Positions 50,531 to 64,000 of a stretch of 64,000 nucleotides of DNA are shown one piece after another; the first letter of the stretch is position 1, and every line of letters begins with the position of its first letter. The translations under genes and the position numbers were made by a program. Under the pieces are notes generated by a model. The model did no database searches. It was not told the origin of the DNA and saw only the letters and a program-made list of their open reading frames with translations. Origin of the DNA: a virus. Its lineage: Duplodnaviria; Caudoviricetes. Where the stretch lies: the IMG/VR virus record IMGVR_UViG_3300028833_003520; one strand, given 5' to 3'.

Positions 50531-52195
50531 TTATTCTTCTGATGTAGTAACTGATGAATCATCAGTTGCAACTGTTGAAGCAACTCTCTGAAGACCTCTA
50601 AATACTTGAGTATTGGCGAGGTTCGGTGTGCAAAGTGCGGCATTGTCGTTGCCGTGATAATTTGCACGCATCCAATTCGTAAGTCCGTAAGTGGCTATCA
50701 TATATTCAGGTTTATCCATTCTGTGAGCGACTTTAACGGTGGTTTGTTTATCGCCATACCAGTTAGGGTCGTCTTTAACAACATTCAGCAAGTCATTGAT
50801 GAATGTGTTTTTGCCCTGAATTGCTCCTGAAGGCGAGTTCAATTTGAACCAAGCCTTGTAGAGTTCATATAAGAAGCCAAAAGGAAGAAGGTCCCAAGCG
50901 AGATTGTCTGATACTTCTCCCCAGAACTGACGAATCGGGTCATTAAATGACTTGTATTCGTCAAGAATGTTCTTACACGCTGTAGGTTCTGAAAGAACAT
51001 AGTAGTTCATATTGAGAACTTTTTTCATAACGTATTCAAGAACTTCGGGTCTGTGGAGATAATCATCTTTGATGTATCTACGCTCGTGACCTGTGAAGCA
51101 CTTTTCGAATGGTATAAAGAGTTGTCTTCTGTAGAAAGAGTCACTCTTATCTTTGATACGAGGGAATTCATTGAGACACTGCACCATAAAGCCCCAAAAC
51201 TGATAGGCTATAGGTGTTTTGAATTTACGGTTGATTTGAATAACATCATTCGTAATGACAGCCTTAACATTAGCGGCTTTGTCAATGAATGTACCGACAT
51301 CGTTTTCATCAACGATAATAGCGGTTGCTCTTGTTAATGGTTCGAGAACAAAGTCCTTACCAAACTCGGATAAAGGAATACTTGCGTATGCACCTGCCCC
51401 ACAGAGTTGTCGCATAAGTTCGCATAATGTTCCTTTACCGTTGTTACCTGTTTCTGAATAGAACCAGGCTGATTTGTTCCAACGGACGTTTGGTCTGATG
51501 ATTGCTCCTAATATTTCCCATATTACTTGAACGATTTCGGGGTCATCGGACAGGTCGTTTACCCAAGATTCAACGTCCCAATCAGTATCATCAATGACGT
51601 TATGTATGACGACATTGGTGGCATTGGGCTTGTAATTGACCTTTGACTTTGTAAGGAAAACATATTTAGGGTCGAAATTATATAACTGTTTATCAGCATA
51701 ATTAAATATGCCGTTGTTTACAGCAATTAAGTCAGGGTCAGTACACCTGTTAGTTCTTGGTACTCTGTCACGAAGAGCGATAATAACTTCTGAGAAGTCT
51801 TTGCTTGTCAGATTATAGTTAAACTGCCTTGCAAGTTTACGTAAAGATTCTTCTGAAGTTAGATATATTCCTTCATCTGGACCGTCATACTGGTATATAG
51901 CGAGTAGGTCATAGTCTGTGTCGGAGTTCTCTCCTGCACAGGCAATTTTACAGATGGGATAGATTTTAGCGAGGATAGCGGCGATTTGTGCGTTGCTGAG
52001 TGTATCAGGTATCTTCCATTTCATACCTTTATCAGCGACAGTATTATACTCGTCGAATTTGCTGTGAATAGCATCCAATAATCCTACTTCAATCTCTGCA
52101 ATCTCTGCTGCTGTGTATTGCTTAGTATCATCTAACGTCTGAATATAATCTTCAGTTACAGATGCAAGGACTTGATTCTTGGTGGTCAAGTCCAT
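50531..52195 (-). CDS. D5/P4-family primase-associated SF3 helicase
   Basis: IAVNNGI (D5_N), Walker A GNNGKGT, Walker B IVDE, CLN, RR..IPF. Confidence 0.9.
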   Translation of the reverse strand: MDLTTKNQVLASVTEDYIQTLDDTKQYTAAEIAEIEVGLLDAIHSKFDEYNTVADKGMKWKIPDTLSNAQIAAILAKIYPICKIACAGENSDTDYDLLAIYQYDGPDEGIYLTSEESLRKLARQFNYNLTSKDFSEVIIALRDRVPRTNRCTDPDLIAVNNGIFNYADKQLYNFDPKYVFLTKSKVNYKPNATNVVIHNVIDDTDWDVESWVNDLSDDPEIVQVIWEILGAIIRPNVRWNKSAWFYSETGNNGKGTLCELMRQLCGAGAYASIPLSEFGKDFVLEPLTRATAIIVDENDVGTFIDKAANVKAVITNDVIQINRKFKTPIAYQFWGFMVQCLNEFPRIKDKSDSFYRRQLFIPFEKCFTGHERRYIKDDYLHRPEVLEYVMKKVLNMNYYVLSEPTACKNILDEYKSFNDPIRQFWGEVSDNLAWDLLPFGFLYELYKAWFKLNSPSGAIQGKNTFINDLLNVVKDDPNWYGDKQTTVKVAHRMDKPEYMIATYGLTNWMRANYHGNDNAALCTPNLANTQVFRGLQRVASTVATDDSSVTTSEE

Positions 52196-52272
52196 ACTAT
52201 TTATGTTCTCCTTTCTTCAGAAGGAACTTTTGTAATAAATATACTCATTTATGAAAAGTTCCGTCCTCATAA

Positions 52273-52301
52273 TCATATCAAAAGTTTTATGTTACTTCAA
52301 G
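52273..52301 (-). promoter_or_regulatory. Sigma-A promoter of the helicase-polymerase operon
   Basis: Minus strand TTGAAG-17-TATGAT with TG extension. Confidence 0.6.
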
Positions 52302-52539
52302 TTACATTTTCCAATTTTTATAGAACTTTTGGAAAAAATTGAGGCTGGCAATCGGAATGCCAGAGGGTTGCCGATGTACATCATTCAACCTGATATTTCG
52401 ATTGACAGGCAGACCGCCTGTTCTTTTCTCTTTACTGAATGGTTTCAAAAACTATTCGGGAAATTGTTTGCCTCAAAAGGCGGTAGCAGAATTTTTTTCA
52501 AAAATGACACCGCCTTTTGCTTAAATCATATTTGAAAAC

Positions 52540-53510
52540 GGGTAGAACTGCCTTAATACAAGGCTTTGGTCAGGTTTTAATGGTGGTATCAGAATGTATC
52601 AGATTTTTTCCGAAATATGATACATTCTGCTGAGCGATTAGCAATATGCACAGACAAAGAGATATTCCTTTGTGCAATATGTATCAAAAATGAAGGTCAA
52701 AAATATAGAGCAAAATGACTTTTCTACATTAAATAAAGATTTAATATGTCTTTATTTAATAGATAATAATGCATTATTAAATAGATAATAATCATTTAAT
52801 AAGTGGTGCATAATATGGGTGAGTTTACATAAAATAAAGGTTAAACTTAAAATTTTGGCTGAAAAGGGTGCCTTTTCGTGAAAATGTATCATTTTTACAG
52901 AAAAATATGACACCGAAGGTAAAACGCTGGGAATGCCTATGAAATAAGGGTTACAGGCTCTTTTTACGCTGATAGCCAAAAACAAAATGTATCATATTTT
53001 TTGAGTCCGAAAAAAATATGATACCGTTGAAACCCTTTATTTATCTATATTTTTAACCAAATGTATCATATGTATCATATTTTTCCAAGTCAATATATAG
53101 GAGATTTTGCTTTGTAAAATGGTTTCTTAAACTATTTTCAAAACTATTCCTAATCCCTTTTCCTGTAAAATTGAAAAATTATCTATATAAGGTTTCAGAA
53201 AAATATGCTACTTTTGATACTCCATATATGGAGTGCCTTAATTATCGTGAATAAATAAATACTTATTAAGTATTTAATATGTATTTATTAAGTATTTAAT
53301 AAATAGTCGATAATTATGGATGCTTTCTTCCCTGTACGACTTAATGAAGTATTATTAAGTCATTTATATCTCTGTTAAAAAGAATATAAAACTGTGCTAA
53401 AAATGGTTGTAAAAGTCCATTAAAAATATGATACAAATGATACAATATCTCTAAAGCCTTATTTTATAAGGGTTTTGAGGGTATCAGATTTTAAGTAGCA
53501 ACATTTTTAG
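52540..53510. other. Putative replication origin with iteron-like inverted and direct repeats and AT-rich tracts
   Basis: About a dozen GTATCA/TGATAC cores, often as ATGTATCATATTTTT or AAAAATATGATAC; at the strand switch beside the helicase. Confidence 0.7.
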
Positions 53511-53700
53511 AGGTAAAAAAAATGTGTAACCTTAACGATTACACATTTTCAGAGTGTTGTACAACTCATAATGACCTCCGTTCTGGGTCTAAAAAGTATT
53601 CAATCGTTGTTTGGGCGACCGAACAGGGAGCAGATTAGCCGAACATTGAATGCTTATGCGTAATTTCGTTGCGAATTATGTGCCAATTTTCGAAAATCTC

Positions 53701-53729
53701 TTGACATATGAGGATTTATTGCCTATACT
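53701..53729 (+). promoter_or_regulatory. Sigma-A promoter
   Basis: TTGACA-17-TATACT. Confidence 0.7.
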
Positions 53730-53773
53730 TGACATTGTAATATGCATTAGATATGAAATGCTTTATCTCTGCG

Positions 53774-53811
53774 AGGACTCTGTTTGTGGTGGGACAGAGT
53801 TCTTTTATTTT
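53774..53811 (+). terminator. Intrinsic terminator
   Basis: aggactctgtt / gacagagttct stem followed by TTTTATTTT. Confidence 0.7.
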
Positions 53812-53833
53812 GGCAGAAAAAATGCAAAATTGC

Positions 53834-53862
53834 TTGATATATGAGGAAATTTGACTTATAAT
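53834..53862 (+). promoter_or_regulatory. Sigma-A promoter of recJ
   Basis: TTGATA-17-TATAAT. Confidence 0.75.
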
Positions 53863-53909
53863 TACAATGTAGTATTAAAAAAAATAAATTCAAGGAGAAT
53901 CATTTTTAT

Positions 53910-55586
53910 ATGAACAGACTTGTCAAAAAGACGCTTGAAAATCGTGGTTATACTGAGGAGTTTTTGAACGACATTAACTGTGCAGACCACGATGTTCTTA
54001 AGGATTCTGATATTCTTTGTCAGAGATTAAGAAGTATATTCGAAGCGAAAAAGCATCTTGTTATAATTCCTGACTTTGATATGGACGGAATTATGTCAGG
54101 TGTAGTAGGTTTTGCAGGACTTGCCGAACTCGGTTTTAATGTATCTCTTTTTATCCCTAATCCGCAGGATGGCTACGGTTTCGGTAGAGATACGATATAC
54201 CGCTTAACAAAACAGTACCCTACTGTTAATGCCATTATCACCTGTGATGTTGGTATTTCTTGTTATGATGGTATTGATTATGCAAAGAGTCTCGGTCTGG
54301 AAGTCTTGATTACTGACCATCATATTCAGGAAAAGGAAAATTCAGCAGATGTAACCGTTGACCCGAATCGTATGGATGAGGTATATAGTCACCCTGGCAT
54401 CTGCGGTGCGTATGTACTCTATCAGGTGTTGCAGCAGTACGCTGATACTTATACTGATATAGATATGCAGGAGCAGATTTCAAGACTGCGTGTATTTGCA
54501 GGTATCGGAACGGTTTCTGATATGATGCCTTTGCTGTATGAAAACCGAGAGTTAGTCCTCGAAGCAGTTGATATTTGCAGACTGATTTACGGGAATGGAA
54601 ATCAGTTCATAGTAAATTCAATACCTGGCTGCGATACATATAGAAGAGCATTTTATGGACTTTATGTCACGTTAAATGCTTTCGCTAATGCAGGTAAGAT
54701 AAGTGATTCGGATAGTATAGACGAAATTTTCTTCGGATATTATCTTGCACCTACTTTCAACTGTATTAAGAGAATGGGTAAGGAAATGGAGAACGCCTTT
54801 GGTGTTTTCTTTGACGCTGAACCTGAGGTCCGTGTGAACAACCTCATAATGTGGAACGAGGAACGTAAGCAGTTGGAACAGAACTATATGCAAGAAATTG
54901 CAGGGCGTGACCAGCCTTACGCTCCATATATTTATTTGACAAGTGCTCCTGGTGGATTTGTCGGACTCTTGGCTAATAAGTTAATGCTCATCTCAGGTGT
55001 ACCTACTCTTGTTTTGTCAGAGTGCAATGGTCAGTATAGTGGCTCTGGACGTTCACCTGGATGGTATCCTTTCGTTGAAAGGGTATCAGCCGAAGGTTAT
55101 TCTGCTATGGGTCATAACTCAGCGTTTGGTATCGGATTTACAGATAAGAGGGAACTTAAGAGTTACTATGCTTTTATCGTAGAAGATGTAACAAACCTGC
55201 TCGCTGAATTACCTGAGGAGAAGGAAGTCTTTGACTTCGTTATTGCAGAAGATGGTACAGGTGATACTGCAATTGATATTTTCCTTTTTGCAGATTATCT
55301 GCAGGAGATTAAGAAGTACAGACCGTTTGGTCAGGGCTTCCCTGCACCCAAGATTCTGCTTAAAGTACAGCCGTCCGAGTGTGAATTTACCTGTATTGGT
55401 AAATTGAAGCAGCACCTTAAGGTTAAGATGGGGTACGGATTTGAGGTACTCCTTTGGAATCAGGCTCCGCTTATCAATAAGGCTACTTCTACTGAGCCGA
55501 TGTACGTCTCTGGTAACCTCAGTATGTCGGAGTTTAATGAGAAGATTACTTTTACATTCGTAGGAACGGTGATGGAAAATGTCTAA
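53910..55586 (+). CDS. recJ: RecJ-like DHH ssDNA exonuclease
   Basis: DFDMDG, GYG, ITCDVG, ITDHH, GTVSD..PL..ENR, GSGRS, GH..A.G, PFGQG. Confidence 0.9.
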   Translation: MNRLVKKTLENRGYTEEFLNDINCADHDVLKDSDILCQRLRSIFEAKKHLVIIPDFDMDGIMSGVVGFAGLAELGFNVSLFIPNPQDGYGFGRDTIYRLTKQYPTVNAIITCDVGISCYDGIDYAKSLGLEVLITDHHIQEKENSADVTVDPNRMDEVYSHPGICGAYVLYQVLQQYADTYTDIDMQEQISRLRVFAGIGTVSDMMPLLYENRELVLEAVDICRLIYGNGNQFIVNSIPGCDTYRRAFYGLYVTLNAFANAGKISDSDSIDEIFFGYYLAPTFNCIKRMGKEMENAFGVFFDAEPEVRVNNLIMWNEERKQLEQNYMQEIAGRDQPYAPYIYLTSAPGGFVGLLANKLMLISGVPTLVLSECNGQYSGSGRSPGWYPFVERVSAEGYSAMGHNSAFGIGFTDKRELKSYYAFIVEDVTNLLAELPEEKEVFDFVIAEDGTGDTAIDIFLFADYLQEIKKYRPFGQGFPAPKILLKVQPSECEFTCIGKLKQHLKVKMGYGFEVLLWNQAPLINKATSTEPMYVSGNLSMSEFNEKITFTFVGTVMENV

Positions 55587-56334
55587 ATCTTTGAAAGACA
55601 ACTTCATTACATTTGGAGTACCCTTTCTTGCTTTGATTGGGTACTTCATTTTGTCAATGCTATGTTTGGAATTTATACCAAGTGCATTTTTAGTAGCATT
55701 TATAGTAGATACTGTCGTGACCGTAATAGGTCTTATTTACATTAAAGGCTACTTACGCAAAAGACAGCCTGTAAGTGACCGTTTACAGATAAAAGCAAAG
55801 CACATTATTGGTGTTGCTGTGTATATGGTGGTTGCAGAGTTTATCGCACAGTGTGCGTCTAATTGGGTTTACTCGTTGGGCGACAAAGCATTTGACTCTT
55901 ATTCTGATTCTATGGGTGATTTGGATTTAGTGTATGCACTATTGACAGTCTTTATAGCACCAATTGCTGAGGAAGTTTTGATGCGAGGCATCATCTTCGG
56001 AAGTCTTAGAAGGAAGAATATATTAGTAGCATACATTGCATCTACTTTAGTCTTTGTGATGATGCACGGTACTCTTACCCATATACCCGTCACACTCGTA
56101 TTTGGTATCTTTATGGCTTTCGTTTACGATATAACAGGACGTATTAGATACCCTGCTTTGTTACATCTCTTAAGTAACGGATTGGCTATTATTATGGGAC
56201 AGTTGAAAGTTCCTTCGGTACTTGTAAGTGGTCCTGTTGTATCGGTATTTTACGTTACATTGTTCACTTTAACCGTCGGGTTTATAGTTGGTTATTATAA
56301 GAGACACGACGGTTTGAGAGTAAAATCTGAATAA
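55579..56334 (+). CDS. CPBP (CAAX/Abi) intramembrane metalloprotease
   Basis: APIAEEVLMRG, F...H, H...N; multiple TMs. Confidence 0.88.
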   Translation: MSKSLKDNFITFGVPFLALIGYFILSMLCLEFIPSAFLVAFIVDTVVTVIGLIYIKGYLRKRQPVSDRLQIKAKHIIGVAVYMVVAEFIAQCASNWVYSLGDKAFDSYSDSMGDLDLVYALLTVFIAPIAEEVLMRGIIFGSLRRKNILVAYIASTLVFVMMHGTLTHIPVTLVFGIFMAFVYDITGRIRYPALLHLLSNGLAIIMGQLKVPSVLVSGPVVSVFYVTLFTLTVGFIVGYYKRHDGLRVKSE

Positions 56335-56378
56335 ACCAACAATGTATTTCTGCTTGTCAGAAAGACAATTAGAGAATG

Positions 56379-56419
56379 AAGCCCTGTCGGTTTGATAGAC
56401 CATTCAGGGCTTTTATTTT
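56379..56419 (+). terminator. Intrinsic terminator
   Basis: aagccctg...cagggctt followed by T run. Confidence 0.75.
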
Positions 56420-56725
56420 GCCTTGTATGCGTCCCATTTTGGTACGGAGTGTAATTTATCGTTTGGTACATTTCAAGTGCAAAATGAGGCACATACGGAA
56501 GGTATAATCACAATAACATTGGTACTCATTATCATCATTTTATGCTGTTTTGCGAGTGTACCGTTAGTTAGTCGCAAAGTATTTAATTGAATTATTAAAT
56601 ATTTAATAATTGTATTTTAATAGTAATAATAATTATTGTAATTAAATAGGAAGAAAATAAATAGTTTAAGTAACTATTTGTTAAATAGTTAATAAAATAG
56701 TTTTCGAAACTGTTTTTATATTGAG

Positions 56726-56768
56726 AAAAAAAAAATGAGGGTACAATAGGAAGCCCTATCGTACCCTC
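56726..56768 (-). terminator. Intrinsic terminator
   Basis: gagggtac.atagg / cctat.gtaccctc stem with U10 on the minus strand. Confidence 0.8.
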
Positions 56769-56787
56769 GGTGAAGGTGTATGGTTAC

Positions 56788-57813
56788 TTAGTCTTCGACT
56801 AAGATGCCGTTACTCATATGGTAACCAGAAGGTGTTCCATACTTGTTCACATAGGATGATACACTCATCGTGTCTCCGCAGGAGCAAGTATAACCTGTTA
56901 TGGTTTTCTTGGTTACTGTCTTGGTCTCTGTACCTAACTGTTCGTAACCAACGATGACTTCCTCCTGGTACGTTTCAGTTGTTGTACCTACCTGAACCTT
57001 GTCTGTGTATGTGGATGCTGAACCTGTATTGTATCTGAGCCAATCTTTCATATTGTTCTTATCACTAAGGTCATCGTCCCACATACCGCTTGACTTCCAC
57101 TCGGCTCTACCGCCATTTTCCCACGCTACGGTTACATCACGACCATTGATATCGAACTGATGGTTCTCATATACAGGAACCTTCTTTGTCTTGGTCTGTG
57201 TTTCGTAAATGGGCTTATCGTAATCGTTAGTTGTACCGTCCTTGGCATACTTCTGTACTGTGACAGTTTCAGTTGTTGTACCGTATGTTGGTGTGTAACT
57301 GTGAGAATGTGCCTGTGTAGGTGCAGTAGTCGGCTCTGCCGTAGGTGTTGCTGTCGGTACAGGTGTCGGAGTGGATGTTGCCTGTGTTGTACCACTTGTA
57401 GGTGCAGTAGTGGGTGCTGTTGTCGGCGTATTTGTCGGTACAGGTGTAGGCGTTGCTGTAGCCTTAGTTGTACCGTTAGTCGGCTGAGTTGTGTTACCAC
57501 TACCACCGTTTGTGGTGCTATTTGTTCCACTGTTTGCTGATGAATTGTTGGTGCTTGAACCGATGGATTCATCTGTATAATCAGTAGAAATATCTACATC
57601 AGAAGCATTTGTGCTCTCATTTGTTTCTGATGTTGTGTTGCCACTTTCGATGGGCGTGCCGTCCTCGTTAGTGGCAATGGTCTCGGTTGTTGATACATCA
57701 ATGGGTGTATCGGTCTTGGTTGACTTGTTGCAGGAAACTACGAGAACGATTACTGCAACTATTGCTATCACGACCATTAAAGAGGCTGTGATTAAGAGAT
57801 ACTTCTTTTTCAT
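56788..57813 (-). CDS. Exported or membrane-anchored Thr/Pro-rich protein
   Basis: N-terminal hydrophobic helix, TPTP linker, HSHSY...C.CG C-terminal domain. Confidence 0.8.
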   Translation of the reverse strand: MKKKYLLITASLMVVIAIVAVIVLVVSCNKSTKTDTPIDVSTTETIATNEDGTPIESGNTTSETNESTNASDVDISTDYTDESIGSSTNNSSANSGTNSTTNGGSGNTTQPTNGTTKATATPTPVPTNTPTTAPTTAPTSGTTQATSTPTPVPTATPTAEPTTAPTQAHSHSYTPTYGTTTETVTVQKYAKDGTTNDYDKPIYETQTKTKKVPVYENHQFDINGRDVTVAWENGGRAEWKSSGMWDDDLSDKNNMKDWLRYNTGSASTYTDKVQVGTTTETYQEEVIVGYEQLGTETKTVTKKTITGYTCSCGDTMSVSSYVNKYGTPSGYHMSNGILVED

Positions 57814-58180
57814 AGTCTTAACTCCTTATTTATCAAAATAATCTTTGTTTTGTACTTTAATGAACTTCTTAAAAAGTTCATTCTAAATACACCTTCAAGG
57901 GTGGAATGGGCAACCGAACAGGTTGTAACTTCGCACGTAGATTTGTGTCAAATCCTCTAATCAGTATTGCTTGTCAAATGCACCAATTTGTCCAAGCAAT
58001 TATTAGTGAGTGCGAACGAACTTTGGGCTGCCGAACCCTTAATCAATTTTAGCACAAAGTTTGTACCAATTGTACCGATATTTGCTTCGAGAAGTCGGAG
58101 CAGAAGTGTCTTAAATTGACATCATTTTGTACTCATAAAATGGTACGGAAATGATGGCGTTTATCGGTGCAATCATTATA

Positions 58181-58357
58181 CGAAACTTGGTTTCGTTGAG
58201 GGCAACCCGAAGACAGTCCAGTGGACTGTTGAGGGCGAGATGCAAGGCATCGAGTGAGGGCTTTCGGAGCCTTTGGCGGAGAAAGTGCGAGCCTTCTCGG
58301 AAGGCGATGCAGGGATGTCGGCTATGCCGACCGCACCGTAAGGTGTGTCATCCCCCC
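58181..58357. other. Cluster of short GC-rich hairpins, mostly triloops (possible single-strand origin or ssDNA signal)
   Basis: Eight adjacent inverted repeats in about 175 nt. Confidence 0.55.
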
Positions 58358-59499
58358 TTATGCCCTTTTATTATTTTCGTCGTTTGAGCGTAAGAGAGAA
58401 CCGAAAATGTCGTTTCAACTAATAAACATAAGGCTTTGCCTTGTTGAAACGTACTAATAAAATCGGGGTGATACTTGTTGAAAATTTCAACATTGTTGAA
58501 GAACCCCCGATTTTATTCACGATTAGCGTGATTAAATTACACAACTTGTTGCGTATTTTGACACGCTGTTGAAATTCACCTGCATTTGGGCGTATTCCGT
58601 ATCGGAATGGCACAAATGGCTCCTGTAGGCGTATATGTTCCCCTTGGGACGTGTACGCTCTGGAGCAATATTGGCGGTGTCCAAAAGCAGACCCAACGGG
58701 TGCGATTGGATGCCAATATTGCGACACCTTGTTAGTCCTATTTGTGTACCGTAAGCGTAAGCGAAGTTTGGTACAAACTTGGTACACAGTTGGTGCAATC
58801 ATAATGAGGTTCGGTCGGTGAATTTTTCACCATTATTTTGCCGAAGTTTGCAACGAAGAAACGGAACAAAGTGAATACGGTTCGGGCATACTGAAAGCAA
58901 AATGAAACTGCTGTTCTTACGCTACGAACTGGTCGTGCCAGTTGCCTCAGTGTAATGCACTGTTAATCATCTAACGCAATGACAATAATTGCGTTGTTTG
59001 GGGAACATCGTGACTTAGTTATTTTTTTTTTTTTGTAATTCGTTCTTTGTTAATCGTCGGGAGCATCGTGACCGACAGTCTGTGTTCCTAATAAGCAGAA
59101 ACTTCTCGTTGTATGTACGAGTTACTCCCTTCCCTGTCTCCAGAAGGCTGAAGAAGTTTTTGCTGTAAAATACGAATAATTACTATTCCAAATTTCAGTT
59201 TATCTGCCAAAGTTCTTTGTGGTGGATGTATTGAATAGTTAATCAATATTCTTTTCACCATCACGTTAAATATGTGCACATTACCTACCCTGCTGGTCTA
59301 TATCCGATTTTATCGGGCTTTGGTATGTTGCACTTAATCCATTTGGTACAAAATGCTGCAAGGTCAACTTATCTAAATTGGTACATAATTGTACCGAAGC
59401 CAAAATTCGTTTCAGGATTTTGATGCTCAATATTTAGTTCAATTATGAGAACTAATGAAATGCTTTGTACGGTTAAAGAATAAAAACCAATAGGTATCA

Positions 59500-60130
59500 C
59501 ATCGTGATAGCGGTTTTGACACAAAATGTCCCAAGAACGACCTTGGGAGTGAGAAGACATTGTGCAAAAAATTGGTTTGTTTCTCAGTACAAAGGTAGGA
59601 CTGAGCGTGTCTGAGTGGTGGGCTTTGCCCAACCAAATCAGAACAAAACGAAGGCTAAAGCGATTTTTAGTTATTCATATATTAAGGGGAGAATAATCTT
59701 ACTGTATAATCTCCGCTTTATCGGGTGAATTTAGGCTGGCATAAATTCGGGGTTGTATAGTTACTCAGGCTTGCATAAAAATCGCAAGCCATCCTTTAAG
59801 ATTATTCGCCTAATCATAATACGAGACTGAATTATCTAACTTACGATGTCATCGTTTGTTTTCTCGGAAATCCAAAATTCTTGATGGGATTCACTGTATT
59901 TGTGGACCATTTTAGTGAATACCGAGATAGAATCATTTTCTGATATAACCGTATTTTGGTGATTAGTCTGATACGATTCATCGTGTCTTAGGGACGACAA
60001 AATGTGGTAACAATTTGCAAAATTTTACCACCAGTGGTCGTTCCCTGGAAATAATCGTTGGGTCTTAATTATTCGAATGAAGACATTCTTTGCAAGAATA
60101 AGCAACGTACCAACAGCGTAGTGAAAAGAA
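59500..60130 (+). ncRNA. Putative structured ncRNA region A (boundaries approximate)
   Basis: No credible ORF; many stems with + strand G-U pairs. Confidence 0.45.
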
Positions 60131-60409
60131 GAGTTAATCTGTCACCAAAATGGGTATTATTTGCTATTTAATAATGCTTTATTAAATATTAAATAATGAA
60201 TTATTATCTATTTAATAAGTAAATAATTATTAGATATTAAGTATTAAATAAATATTTAATAATTCTCGAAAATTATGTAAGCCCGATTGCGTGATTTTCG
60301 GTCCATCATTTTGTAGCATTATTAAGTTATATAAAATGTATTTAATAATGAATTAAAATGATATATTTAATCTATTTAATATGTGTAGTCTAATGCTCTA
60401 TTCTGAATG

Positions 60410-61190
60410 AAAAACCTCGCCGTCTGTATAGCCATACCGACGGGGTTTTGTACGCAGTTTATACGGCACTTCTCGTTGTCCAAACCGTAAGACGGAGATG
60501 TTCGTGAACATCGAGGGTGTTTGGAAATGGAGATATATTTAATCGTTGACGGTTCTACAATCAGGTTCCGTGAGTGGCGGTCAACTTGCTTGACCCCGAT
60601 GAACGGATGTGATTGGAGAAATACTGGCAACTCCAGGTGGCTTGCCAACTGGAGAAGCCAGTATAGTCGCATAATCGTTCGTCTCCAAGAGATTCCCATA
60701 AAAATATTACAAAGGAGAAAAAGAATGCCTTTCAAGTTTGCAGGGGAAGGAAACGAGTACAAGTTTACTCATTTGTGACGCAAACCCCTGCAGACCTGAA
60801 AGGTTGCTTTTGGAAACACGGTGGAGCAACGTGGAACGGTGCTTTCAAAAGACATTCGGTTTCCGACGATTTTTTGTCGAAGGTGTTTTATCTGATTGTC
60901 CTCGACAATCAAGGAAAATGCCGAAAGAGTAATTTAGTATATTCGCAGAATATAATAAATCAAAAAATTTAGGAAATTTTCGACGACTAATATTTTTCAG
61001 ATGGTATTCAATCTGCTTTACAGAGAAATCAAGGATTTCGTACCAAACCTGTGAAACGTATTTGTTATTCAATATGATGCGTGTTCCACAGGTAACTGGG
61101 CTGTAGAGCGTCTGACTGCGACCTTGGATGAAATGCAAGGGCAGTCAGTAGTGTAGCGATAAATGGAGACCTAACGTCCAAAGATGGAGT
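60410..61190 (+). ncRNA. Putative large structured ncRNA B (boundaries approximate)
   Basis: Nested stems with + strand G-U pairs; downstream of an AT-rich tract. Confidence 0.55.
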
Positions 61191-61196
61191 GACGGA

Positions 61197-61244
61197 AAAG
61201 AAAAAAAAAAATGGACTGACTACCATTAAGGTAGCCAATCCATT
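61197..61244 (-). terminator. Intrinsic terminator of the 44-aa gene
   Basis: aatgga.tg.ctacc / ggtag.ca.tccatt stem with U11 on the minus strand. Confidence 0.8.
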
Positions 61245-61262
61245 CTGTTAACTTGTGTTTAC

Positions 61263-61397
61263 TCAATCTTCATCGTAGTTGGGCATCGGTGCCATTGCGA
61301 TTGCCTCAGTAAGTGAATGTGCTTCAACGACTGCGATTACGAAACCGTACTTATCTGTTACTGTGAATGTCTGAAGACCATTATCTGAACTTGCCAT
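61263..61397 (-). CDS. 44-aa protein (not in ORF track)
   Basis: AAGGAGG RBS; MASSDNGLQTFTVTDKYGFVIAVVEAHSLTEAIAMAPMPNYDED; own terminator. Confidence 0.8.
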   Translation of the reverse strand: MASSDNGLQTFTVTDKYGFVIAVVEAHSLTEAIAMAPMPNYDED

Positions 61398-61499
61398 CTC
61401 AAGTTCCTCCTTATATTGTATTTTTGAAGAAAAATCTTCAAGGGTGTTATGAGCGACCGAACAGGTCGCCTGTTACATAAACTCTCTCAAAAACTTAAA

Positions 61500-63860
61500 G
61501 GATGATTTCTATAAGAAGGAATATAAACATCAGACTCGCCTGAAGACTTGTCGGAAGAAAGAAGTCTGCAGTAAAGGAAAGGCAGGCTCGCCTGTAGTGA
61601 TAACGAAAGCAAGAAGTCTGACTTTAAGAATGGGAATAAGGATGACTCGCCTTCTGTTTGCACAAACGAAGAAAGAAGTCAGACTTGTTCATCGGGGTTC
61701 GTTCCTCTTGCGGTGTACCACAGATGAAGCGAACTCTGATAGGCAAAATATTTGACCACTATCTTGCTACGTCAATCGTGTAGTCGCAGAGGATGGTGAT
61801 GTAGGCTTTCGTTAAGAAAGGCATAAGAACCTACCGCTGCGTAAACGATATGTTTTGCGATAATTATTTAATAGTCTGGCGTGGTCGCTTTTTCACCTTT
61901 GGTGGAAAGGAGCGACCTTTAAGCCGCAAGCGAAAGCATAAGAGTGCGTTCTGAAGAAATTGGCTAAAGGACAATTTCCTCTATTGGTCAAATATAAAGC
62001 CTATGAAGAAGGGACGAACTTCTTCTCATTATCTGACTCGTCAGTGTTGTTTCCTTAAGAGCGTGGATTCTGCTCCACTGACCGAACGACTGAGCCAGCG
62101 AAGGAAAGTGAGAGTGGGCAGAATGGAACTGCTCGAAGGAAACAAGTAATTGGTTAATAACAAGGTTCGCTATATAAACGATATTCAAATTGTTCCGAAC
62201 CGATTATGAAGTTCGCTCTGTTGCCAAAGGATTTGCTTGTCAAAGCCTTGGCTGTACTTAATCTCGTTGAACTGGAAACCAACCCTACCCTTAGTTGATT
62301 TCCGTCACCAAGACTACTTAATCTTCAACGATACATAAAGAACTTAGGTTAGACTATGATTATTTTGCTGTAAAAGATAAATCTATAAGATTTATCTCGT
62401 TAATCGAGGAAAGATTCAGTTATTCAACCGACCTGTTTTGAGTTTTCCGAAGATAACGGGAAACCGAGTCTGAAAGACGAATTTGCCTTATTTTCGGAAA
62501 ACAATGTTGACACTAATTGTTAATCACAGGTTATCAATCTTATACTTTGAGATTGTGCGTGTTTATCACGCAATTGCAGAGCAATTAGTTCTTCTAAACC
62601 TCTCGAATAGGTAACTTTTATCTTTGGCGGTATAAAAGTTAACTATGTTACATCAATTGTTTGTTAATCGGTGCTTATCAATCGGTAAGTTATAAGTGTT
62701 ACAAAAACCGTTATCAGTTTTTGATTTATCAAGTAGGTGAAGGCACCCTGTCGTGGGCGTAATTATATGTAGCCCTACAGAAGTGGTGCCTGAACCAAAA
62801 TAAGGATAAAGCGAGCCGTGCACGACTCCTTTATCCGCTATCACAGATTCGAATAAAACGAATCGTATTGAGGCTTTTGTCTTAAAGGATAGTGCCTAAC
62901 TCGCCTGAAGCGTTGCGTCAAGAAAGAAGTTAGGCACTTTAGTTTGACACGTCTTGGCTACGATTCATCGTGTCAGGTTGAAAATGAGTCCAGGCGTAGC
63001 CTTGACGCATTTTATTGTTACAAAGGAGTGCGATTGCATATCGCACCAACTTTAAGTGTCAATTGTTCACTATAAACTTTTATAAAAAGTTGTTAAACCT
63101 TTGCACGGATAGTCTTTTTACGAGTTTATCGTGCCGTTTTCTACGGACAAGGCACACTGATAAGTGTGACAGGACGTGGAAAATGATGAATAATGAGTTT
63201 GACTTAGGCACAGAGAGCAATAGCGAACGCCGTGACTAACAAAGAACGAATGAAATAAGAGGCAAGCATAAATGTGAAGCCGTATAGATGCAAAGTGTTT
63301 TACGAGGGGCTTGGGAAACAATGACTTATCTTCTTATCTACGATTTATCGTGCAAAAACTCCTCGGCGTAAACTCTGCTGTACGAAGAATGAGAAAGCAG
63401 GTGCCTCGCTGAGGAGTTTTGTTGAAATTAAGTATGGAGATAGCATCAATCACGTAGTTTTACTGCGTAGGTATTTATTTTATCATTGAAAGACGATAAC
63501 GGAATACGTTCATCAAAAGAAGCCCATACACGAGGCTTCGCCTATTAAGTCATTGTTTCTTTTTACTGGTGATTAGTGATTCAATTTGCACTATGTCGGG
63601 ATTTGTCTTGTGCTACGGAGCCTCTCGGCGAAGGTTCAGGACGAAGAGTCACTATATTTTGCGACAATCTTGCAAAATTGGCTCCCAACGACTTTGGTGA
63701 GAGTTGGGGTGGGGTAAACGGTATTTATGACTTGTGACTCGTACACAATGTCAAATAAGTGATTTCGATGTTATTGCTGCTGGTCAGCAAATTATTAACT
63801 GTGACAGTTAATAATTTTGGTGTAATCAAAACGGAGTTGGAAGCCAACTGTTCAGTGCTT
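61500..63860 (+). ncRNA. Putative very large structured ncRNA(s), region C (boundaries approximate)
   Basis: Dense stems, GNRA loops, 14-16 bp helices including long-range ones, repeated modules, + strand G-U pairs. Confidence 0.6.
61531..61681 (+). repeat. Three tandem stem-loop modules RCT-CGCCT...AG-(A/C)AAGA-AGT; fourth copy at 62892-62937
   Basis: Directly visible with co-varying outer stems. Confidence 0.8.
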
Positions 63861-63873
63861 GAGAAATCTTAAG

Positions 63874-63918
63874 AAAAAAAAAGCCTACAATATCGTCGCA
63901 GACGGTATCATAGGCTTT
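63874..63918 (-). terminator. Intrinsic terminator of a gene beyond the right edge
   Basis: aaagccta...taggcttt stem with U9 on the minus strand. Confidence 0.7.
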
Positions 63919-64000
63919 AAGGCTTTGTTAGATAGAAGTCAAATTCCTTGTTTTATGCTGTATGGGTGTAAACAACAAAACTTCTATAAACACTTTAGTT

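Follow-up and report, generated by a model that had tools for sequence, protein, structure and literature searches.

A strand-specific, covarying fold linked to P4-family primases marks a gene-free island of a jumbo phage as a possible replication-control region

Introduction

Replication origins of the iteron type have a standard anatomy, in which iterons and an AT-rich block go together with an initiator-type helicase-primase. In the oriV of plasmid RSF1010, iterons and an AT-rich region occur together with the sites ssiA and ssiB, at which the plasmid-encoded primase RepB' acts; the G4-type ssi signals are single-strand priming signals too. The replication module of satellite phage P4 consists of the alpha primase-helicase with ori and crr iterons, and to our knowledge no structured element of the kind reported here has been described for P4. 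Here we describe such an element, which we call element A, in a gene-free island that occupies the last 6.2 kb of a 64,000-nt stretch of viral DNA (referred to throughout as the window; IMG/VR record IMGVR_UViG_3300028833_003520, Duplodnaviria, Caudoviricetes). An original prediction, made from the letters of the window alone, had proposed that this island holds one kilobase-scale RNA or several large noncoding RNAs. We tentatively favor a different reading, namely that the island around element A is a replication-control island in which the conserved fold serves to prime single-stranded DNA, as sso and ssi sites do.

Single-strand origins (sso) are orientation-specific sequences that are active only when single-stranded, and their primers may come from the RNA polymerase or primase of the host, or from a primase that the element itself encodes (PMC4595007). 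The sso1 of ICEBs1, a three-stem-loop element related to the sso of pBAA1, is a single-strand origin of an integrated Gram-positive mobile element; it is orientation-specific and was recognized more by structure than by sequence (PMC4595007), and in these respects it may parallel element A. Another described group is that of the ssoA origins, such as palA of pC194 and ssoA of pMV158/pLS1, which carry the sequence words RSB and CS-6 (PMC4598088).

Results

Element A is a covarying fold of the + strand

The source of the window is a jumbo phage from a gut or rumen metagenome. The window is part of a 243,445-bp jumbo-phage contig in the ENA, which also encodes the 341-aa protein adjoining the island, and its gene set includes a clamp loader and an anaerobic ribonucleotide reductase. 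Homologues of its RecJ-like nuclease led to three complete jumbo phages in IMG/VR (G001-G003, ~40% identity) and to a large metagenomic clade. The 341-aa protein has no relatives in IMG/VR and led instead to the closest relatives of the phage, K (L151, a 222-kb scaffold) and H (L035, a 209-kb scaffold). A gene-poor island lies at the matching place in G001-G003, K and H.

We traced the element A family from a 65-nt match to G001, and then by exact-pattern scans. A covariance model built from the window sequence alone, designated R1, found 58 members in 60 loci, among them the G002 and G003 copies, which had escaped the exact pattern. Each of the complete genomes G001-G003 has exactly one copy of the element, and one copy each was found in the window, K and H.

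The core of element A (Table 1) is a nested fold in which helix P1 encloses P2, P3 and P4, P4 encloses P5, P6 and P7, and P7 encloses P8 and P9. Conservation extends beyond the core on either side, from the P0 hairpin ahead of P1 to about 58530, so that element A as a whole covers 58178-58530 on the + strand. The second domain, 3' of the core, differs little between the window and K, and H retains it through compensatory changes; its long hairpin (58463-58527) has A and T runs on its flanks and is terminator-like in both directions. A hairpin with an AGCGT-type loop follows the core in many unrelated members.

In the alignment of the 58 members, 93.2% of cells are paired, compared with 72% in shuffles and 40-49% in controls with slid partners, and both sides have changed in 48 of the 57 pairs. 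This alignment was fitted to model R1, and its margin over the controls is large; a three-way alignment of K, H and the window, made without the model, gives the same compensations. Pairs of the G-U type outnumber those of the A-C type by 116 to 36 (52 to 23 when the variable helices are taken alone), indicating that the fold belongs to the + strand. The original prediction, which held an undescribed family to be possible, had called for covariation among homologues as a check. An undescribed structured element does exist in the form of element A, which covaries strongly; its size is not one of kilobases.

Known families gave no account of the element. An Rfam scan of the window with 4227 models returned no match at gathering score, and no match at E values up to 1 over 52000-64000; the families that the original prediction had listed for checking (ROOL, GOLLD, OLE, HEARO and group I/II introns) gave no match, and neither did riboswitches. 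Scanning ten further element A loci against Rfam revealed tRNAs only. Like ROOL, GOLLD, OLE, raiA and HEARO, element A folds in a complex, covarying way, codes for nothing and is found in phages or prophages. Unlike these RNAs, it has no Rfam match, is smaller and is rich in triloops.

Element A is widespread and is linked to P4-family primases and iterons

The exact pattern occurs in at least 113 metagenome contigs and in 113 species-representative genomes. The hosts are mainly Collinsella, Corynebacterium, Arthrobacter and other Actinomycetota, together with Lachnospiraceae, Oscillospiraceae and other Clostridia. When an actinobacterial member was compared with 72,556 plasmids by BLASTN, none matched; a literature search for a described motif found nothing relevant, and no spurious open reading frames (ORFs) over element A, which could serve as leads to transcript-like contigs, are on record.

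To describe its neighbors, we considered the 156 loci whose upstream sequence reaches 1.5 kb or more. In 54 of these (35%), a homologue of the window primase ends a median of 110 nt upstream of the core, on the same strand, and only two primase homologues were placed otherwise. The window primase and a representative neighboring primase both match TIGR01613 above cut-off, and the primase beside element A in L017 is 51% identical to that of the window. This is the primase family of the P4 replication module, which likewise has iterons near the gene. Some actinobacterial loci also have an excisionase-like protein upstream, as expected of integrated elements. In all six jumbo phages, element A is oriented divergently from a leftward transcription unit a few hundred bases away, and in G002, G003 and H it lies beside tRNA arrays.

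We also considered a 448-aa protein encoded ~700 nt downstream of element A in actinobacterial loci (L198 4316-5659 and relatives) as a Mob_Pre relaxase. That assignment came from ESM-Atlas only (0.93), was not confirmed by Pfam, PHROGs or NCBIfam profiles, and is not relied on here.

Direct repeats in helical phase (11 nt) occur near element A in unrelated hosts (L108, L019, L014) and in G001, with a sequence that differs from lineage to lineage. In G002 and G003, element A lies within a conserved stretch of ~1.3 kb (L015 3265-4620 and its counterpart in L016) in which substitutions show no codon periodicity (59/59/56 at the three positions). This stretch holds a dozen GTACC-core repeats, whose arrays stand right after element A, and a duplicated 33-nt GC-rich hairpin module. 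The window itself shares this repeat core: it has 31 TGGTAC sites, of which 14 fall within 5.3 kb at 56440-61720. The AT-rich block of the island, a candidate DNA-unwinding region ~2 kb to the right of element A, resembles the 22/11-nt repeats found between the primase and RecJ genes (52742-53305). Features by which an iteron-type origin is recognized are present, namely helical-phase repeats, an AT-rich region and an initiator gene, here ~6 kb away, and unrelated loci share this layout. As for the primase and RecJ genes themselves, they are divergent and are separated by a gene-free region of 1.7 kb with a GC content of 30% (52196-53909). This region could be another origin-like site, or it could hold divergent promoters.

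The combination of an element-encoded primase, a structured single-strand site, iterons and an AT-rich region resembles RSF1010 oriV as that origin is generally described. The priming sites differ in form: ssiA and ssiB are 40-nt hairpins present in two copies on opposite strands, whereas element A is one 172-nt fold on one strand.

Loops and some short words resemble those of single-strand origins

A fold that belongs to one strand could act as single-stranded DNA or as RNA. The loops of element A follow a DNA-like pattern. Triloops make up 63% of its predicted hairpin loops (52% without the invariant P8), and the commonest loops are C-GAA-G, C-GCA-G, C-AAA-G, C-GUCA-G and C-GUUA-G. Most are thus of the G-N-A or G-N-N-A type and not GNRA, with some GNRA loops (GUAA, GCAA) among them. 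G-N-A and G-N-N-A loops are hyperstable DNA loop types familiar from single-strand origins. The mini-hairpin word GCGNAGC was found 43 times in the family, versus 4 times for its reverse complement. The folding z-score at 58370-58530 is -8.8 with DNA parameters versus -6.5 with RNA parameters. In the window copy, nearly all stems are perfect Watson-Crick palindromes around three bases; they fold equally well on the - strand, and better with DNA than with RNA parameters.

Like the ssoA origins, element A is a non-coding, orientation-specific, multi-hairpin fold of one strand, and the two share sequence words. TTATGCC, a part of RSB, is found in every member, because the search pattern contains it. 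The CS-6 word TAGCG[TA] (TAGCGT or TAGCGA) is present in 31 of 121 distinct members, about a quarter, versus 3 on the other strand; the window copy has AGCGTA and not TAGCGT. In pC194, CS-6 sits in the loop of a GTCGGC/GCCGAC stem, and it is this same stem that forms P8 here. The two also differ in architecture and setting. An ssoA is one long hairpin and element A a ten-helix nested fold, and element A resides in double-stranded DNA (dsDNA) jumbo phages and integrated elements beside a P4-family primase, not an HUH Rep.

Less probably, though still quite possibly, element A is the gene of a new structured noncoding RNA of ~170-350 nt on the + strand, which would work alongside the replication module, for instance by supplying an origin transcript or primer or by regulating the primase. 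Its nested multi-junction fold with the long-range helices P1 and P4, its conserved junction bases, its strong covariation and its excess of G-U over A-C would all suit an RNA, and so would its GNRA loops. Co-orientation with the upstream primase gene points the same way, and it also means that element A would be transcribed in any case. The dominant triloops and GNA/GNNA loops are unusual for natural RNAs, however, and stems that are perfectly Watson-Crick and fold equally on both strands are not what such a gene would lead one to expect. There is no relative in Rfam, no promoter box upstream of P0 is conserved between the window and K, and H has no T run after its terminal hairpin. Should the RNA reading prove true, the original prediction would have been right on the kind of molecule and wrong on its size.

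Several observations weigh against a priming signal, and some of them are those that favor an RNA gene. At about a third of the positions in P1 and P4, A-U and G-U are exchanged opposite an invariant U, a frequent swap that looks more RNA-like. The divergent placement next to a leftward promoter in the six jumbo phages, together with the hairpin and T run that lie 3' of the second domain in the window and K, fits a small RNA gene, as does the position beside tRNA arrays. In dsDNA phages, a single-stranded fold of 170 nt needs an exposed lagging-strand template. Of the 156 loci, 106 lack a primase of this clade upstream. The full 17-nt RSB was found only in pC194 among 291 loci, being absent from the 290 others, and model R1 gave no match to the pC194 ssoA (the best hit, at E 0.18, was a 37-nt hairpin elsewhere in the plasmid), so element A is not a member of the ssoA family. 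Finally, GC skew keeps one sign across the window with no switch at the island, and it keeps one sign over the whole of G002 and G003 (L266-L280) whatever the gene orientation, which speaks against a classical bidirectional origin. The uniform skew of G002 and G003 suggests one-directional or rolling-circle-type replication, or else a strand-wide mutational bias. Element A lies on the G-rich strand in three of four phages. A priming site on a strand that is displaced or serves as lagging template would be placed in this way, but element A is itself G-rich.

A giant RNA spanning the island is unlikely

Having described the conserved fold, we turn to the island that surrounds it. Over 57814-63996, public gene calls list one 44-aa gene in 6.2 kb, and the longest ORF in 57814-64000 has 128 codons' worth of protein (128 aa) with a TTG start and no ribosome-binding site (RBS). 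Reading TAG, TGA or TAA as sense (TAG=Q, table 4, TAA=Q) opened no ORF in the island. An AAGGAG-type RBS precedes all real genes of the window; within the island, such sites stand only before the 44-aa gene (61263-61397, -) and a 17-aa ORF (60725, +). The island is thus as free of ORFs over ~6 kb as the original prediction had held, and the 44-aa gene does have a genuine RBS, though not the sole one as had been claimed, given that the 17-aa ORF has one too. ARAGORN and Rfam RF00005 detected no tRNA or tmRNA in the window, and BLASTN of the island against 50,697 phage records gave no match.

The original prediction rested on dense stems whose mismatches seemed to be G-T on the + strand. The density is real. 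The mean folding z-score in 160-nt windows is -2.3 on the + strand and -2.2 on the - strand of the island, compared with -1.2 and -1.3 in coding controls, and windows with z below -3 make up 36% (+) and 28% (-) of the island versus 6% and 3% of the controls. A strand-symmetric helix finder located 89 helices in the island, against 50-65 per equal stretch of coding sequence and 29-47 in shuffles, and terminator-like sites number 15 where 5.2 +/- 2.3 are expected. The five stems quoted as examples are present with the wobbles described. The strand asymmetry, in contrast, disappears when both strands are treated alike. Single G-T and A-C mismatches in helices number 7 and 3 in one strand-symmetric count and 12 and 11 in a second, and composition alone predicts a ratio of 1.25; wobble pairs show no strand bias across the island. 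The island therefore folds better than shuffled and coding sequence, as had been proposed for testing, but it does so equally on both strands, and over its full length strand asymmetry offers no argument for RNA. Raw energy is lower on the + strand in 84% of island windows versus 61% in coding DNA, which is consistent with the G-richness of the + strand across the entire window, coding parts included.

Comparison with the closest relatives defines which parts of the island are conserved. Four blocks align with K (57814-58625, 60156-60450, 61150-61470 and 63760-63868), each of 110-800 nt and together ~1.5 of 6.2 kb, or roughly a quarter. With H, alignment is limited to the first two. The rest cannot be aligned at a word size of 7 nt, though identity between the flanking proteins is 47-87%. 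Such patchy conservation is evidence against a single long functional RNA and also against a graveyard of genes. A single kilobase-scale RNA, or several of GOLLD or ROOL size, spanning the island is close to refuted. Besides the high density of helices over 6 kb, its case could draw on a 3.8-kb metagenome contig that covers 60537-64322, but nothing marks that contig as RNA. Only four blocks are conserved, which makes such an RNA unlikely; terminator-like hairpins on both strands interrupt the region, which also includes an AT-rich repeat block and a - strand gene, and neither an Rfam match at E up to 1 nor a strand asymmetry was found. The conserved fold measures 172 to ~350 nt, against the kilobases proposed.

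It is likewise very improbable that the island consists of decayed genes for proteins or tRNAs, even though small genes and tRNAs are found at the corresponding place in relatives. The proteins encoded at that place in K and H have no match in the island (best E 0.28), tblastx matches are confined to the nucleotide-conserved blocks, where they occur in all frames, and 52000-64000 contains no tRNA-like match at E up to 1. The decayed genes that the original prediction had named as a possible refutation were thus not found.

The matching islands hold 23 tRNA genes in G002 (L015 316-2888), at least 9 in G003 (L016 16147-17911) and 3 in H (L035 1934-3732). The islands of the window and K have none, suggesting that this is a variable RNA and accessory region. 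H also has an insert of small genes of ~7 kb (L032 12627-20014; RtcB, YpsA) between its Rce1-like and 341-aa genes, which is not in the window.

Other features of the island

Several further features lie in the conserved and non-conserved parts of the island (Table 1). On the - strand, a TGn-TAAAAT box is found at 58046-58054. Two JGI contigs from different samples, L004 and L005, match the window exactly at 58031-56753 and 58027-56765; they start 8-12 nt after the start site expected from this box and end in the terminator of the 341-aa gene, and judging from these ends they resemble transcripts that have been assembled. Both - strand genes are preceded by a 31-nt leader motif, whose hairpin shows compensatory changes. 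Within the 341-aa gene, for which PHROGs has no matching family, lies an 81-nt tandem duplication (57316-57474; two copies, 78% matches).

The recurrence of sequence modules that the original prediction had noticed is borne out: a 38-nt hairpin module occurs four times, an oriented 5-bp hairpin five times and the leader motif twice. The outer stem of the 38-nt module, of 5-6 bp, shows compensatory changes, and both strands of its internal loop are conserved. The 38-nt modules are absent from K and H, and the oriented hairpins are essentially private to this phage. Both could be protein-binding sites or the heads of small transcription units. The latter possibility can be extended to the non-conserved three quarters of the island, which would then be an array of short, fast-evolving small-RNA transcription units, each running from an oriented hairpin to a terminator. 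We consider this doubtful. Each of the five oriented hairpins is followed by a different structured body of 100-220 nt, terminator-like sites are in excess, and there are structured patches with z of -4 to -7. No unit can be aligned in K or H, however, the terminator-like sites are mostly on the - strand and the hairpins on the + strand, and the wobble pairs have no strand bias.

Table 1. Positions of element A and of other features in the window.
Feature	Position	Strand	Description
D5/P4-type primase-helicase	50531-52195	-	P4-family primase (TIGR01613)
RecJ-like nuclease	53910-55586	+	
Promoter and 5' leader of 341-aa gene	57814-58075	-	31-nt leader motif 57893-57923; two GGTAC sites 58054-58075
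P0 hairpin	58178-58196	+	7-bp stem, 3-nt loop; compensatory changes in K (L151) and H (L035)
Element A core	58198-58369	+	172 nt, ten-helix nested fold, GC 0.59
Element A second domain	58370-58530	+	Hairpin with AGCGTAAG loop, then 9-bp helix enclosing small hairpin, then long hairpin
GGTAC iteron-like sites	58768-59395		11-nt tandem repeat 58768-58798 (2.8 copies); further sites at 59344 and 59379
Oriented 5-bp hairpin/near-palindrome, five copies	58923, 59972, 62959, 63119, 63339 (span 58923-63352)	+	
AT-rich block	60147-60400		GC 0.18, 22-nt repeats; conserved in K (66%) and H
9-bp hairpin	60411-60449		A/T runs on flanks, terminator-like both ways; inside block conserved with K
17-aa ORF	60725-60778	+	Perfect RBS; downstream of structured 270-nt stretch; unalignable in relatives
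44-aa gene unit	61208-61470	-	Gene 61263-61397, terminator 61208-61246, leader motif 61436-61466; 63% with K
38-nt hairpin module, four copies	61531, 61583, ~61645, 62896 (span 61531-62933)	+	
Terminator-like hairpin	63519-63539		
Block conserved with K (78%)	63760-63903		Perfect palindrome with 13-bp arms 63790-63816; terminator of upstream - strand operon 63883-63903

Discussion

In our preferred reading, the island described here is a non-coding replication and control region, situated where related phages keep tRNA genes, and not a giant RNA. Its novelty lies in a fold that covaries strongly, belongs to one strand and is widespread; Rfam has no model for it, and it is tied to iterons and P4-family primases. 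From its loops, its strand and its neighbors, we infer that element A acts as DNA and primes, and that the island is an origin.

Under this reading, the + strand would be exposed as single-stranded DNA during replication, allowing the element A fold to form. The phage primase, or alternatively host RNA polymerase or primase, would recognize the fold and prime synthesis of the complementary strand. The 11-nt-phased GGTAC repeats may be the initiator-binding part of the same origin, and the 22-nt repeat block with its GC content of 18% may be the unwinding part. The remaining hairpins of the island would be terminators, operators and lineage-specific sites.

If element A is instead transcribed, which we regard as possible though less likely than not being so, it would be a new and widespread family of structured RNAs (core 172 nt, extending to ~350 nt), partners of P4-family primase-helicases that might act as origin or primer RNAs, in jumbo phages of gut and rumen and in the mobile elements of Actinomycetota and Clostridia, over 100 species in all. 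It would then rank among the more widespread unannotated structured RNAs of gut bacteria. Our analysis removes the more exciting but unsupported claim of kilobase-scale RNAs.

How DNA synthesis starts in large dsDNA phages, and in the small primase-bearing integrated elements of Gram-positive bacteria, is largely unmapped. With one easily recognizable fold as a marker of the replication module, in jumbo phages as well as in more than 100 bacterial species, annotators would have a cis-acting landmark, and element A would offer a defined substrate for P4-family primases.

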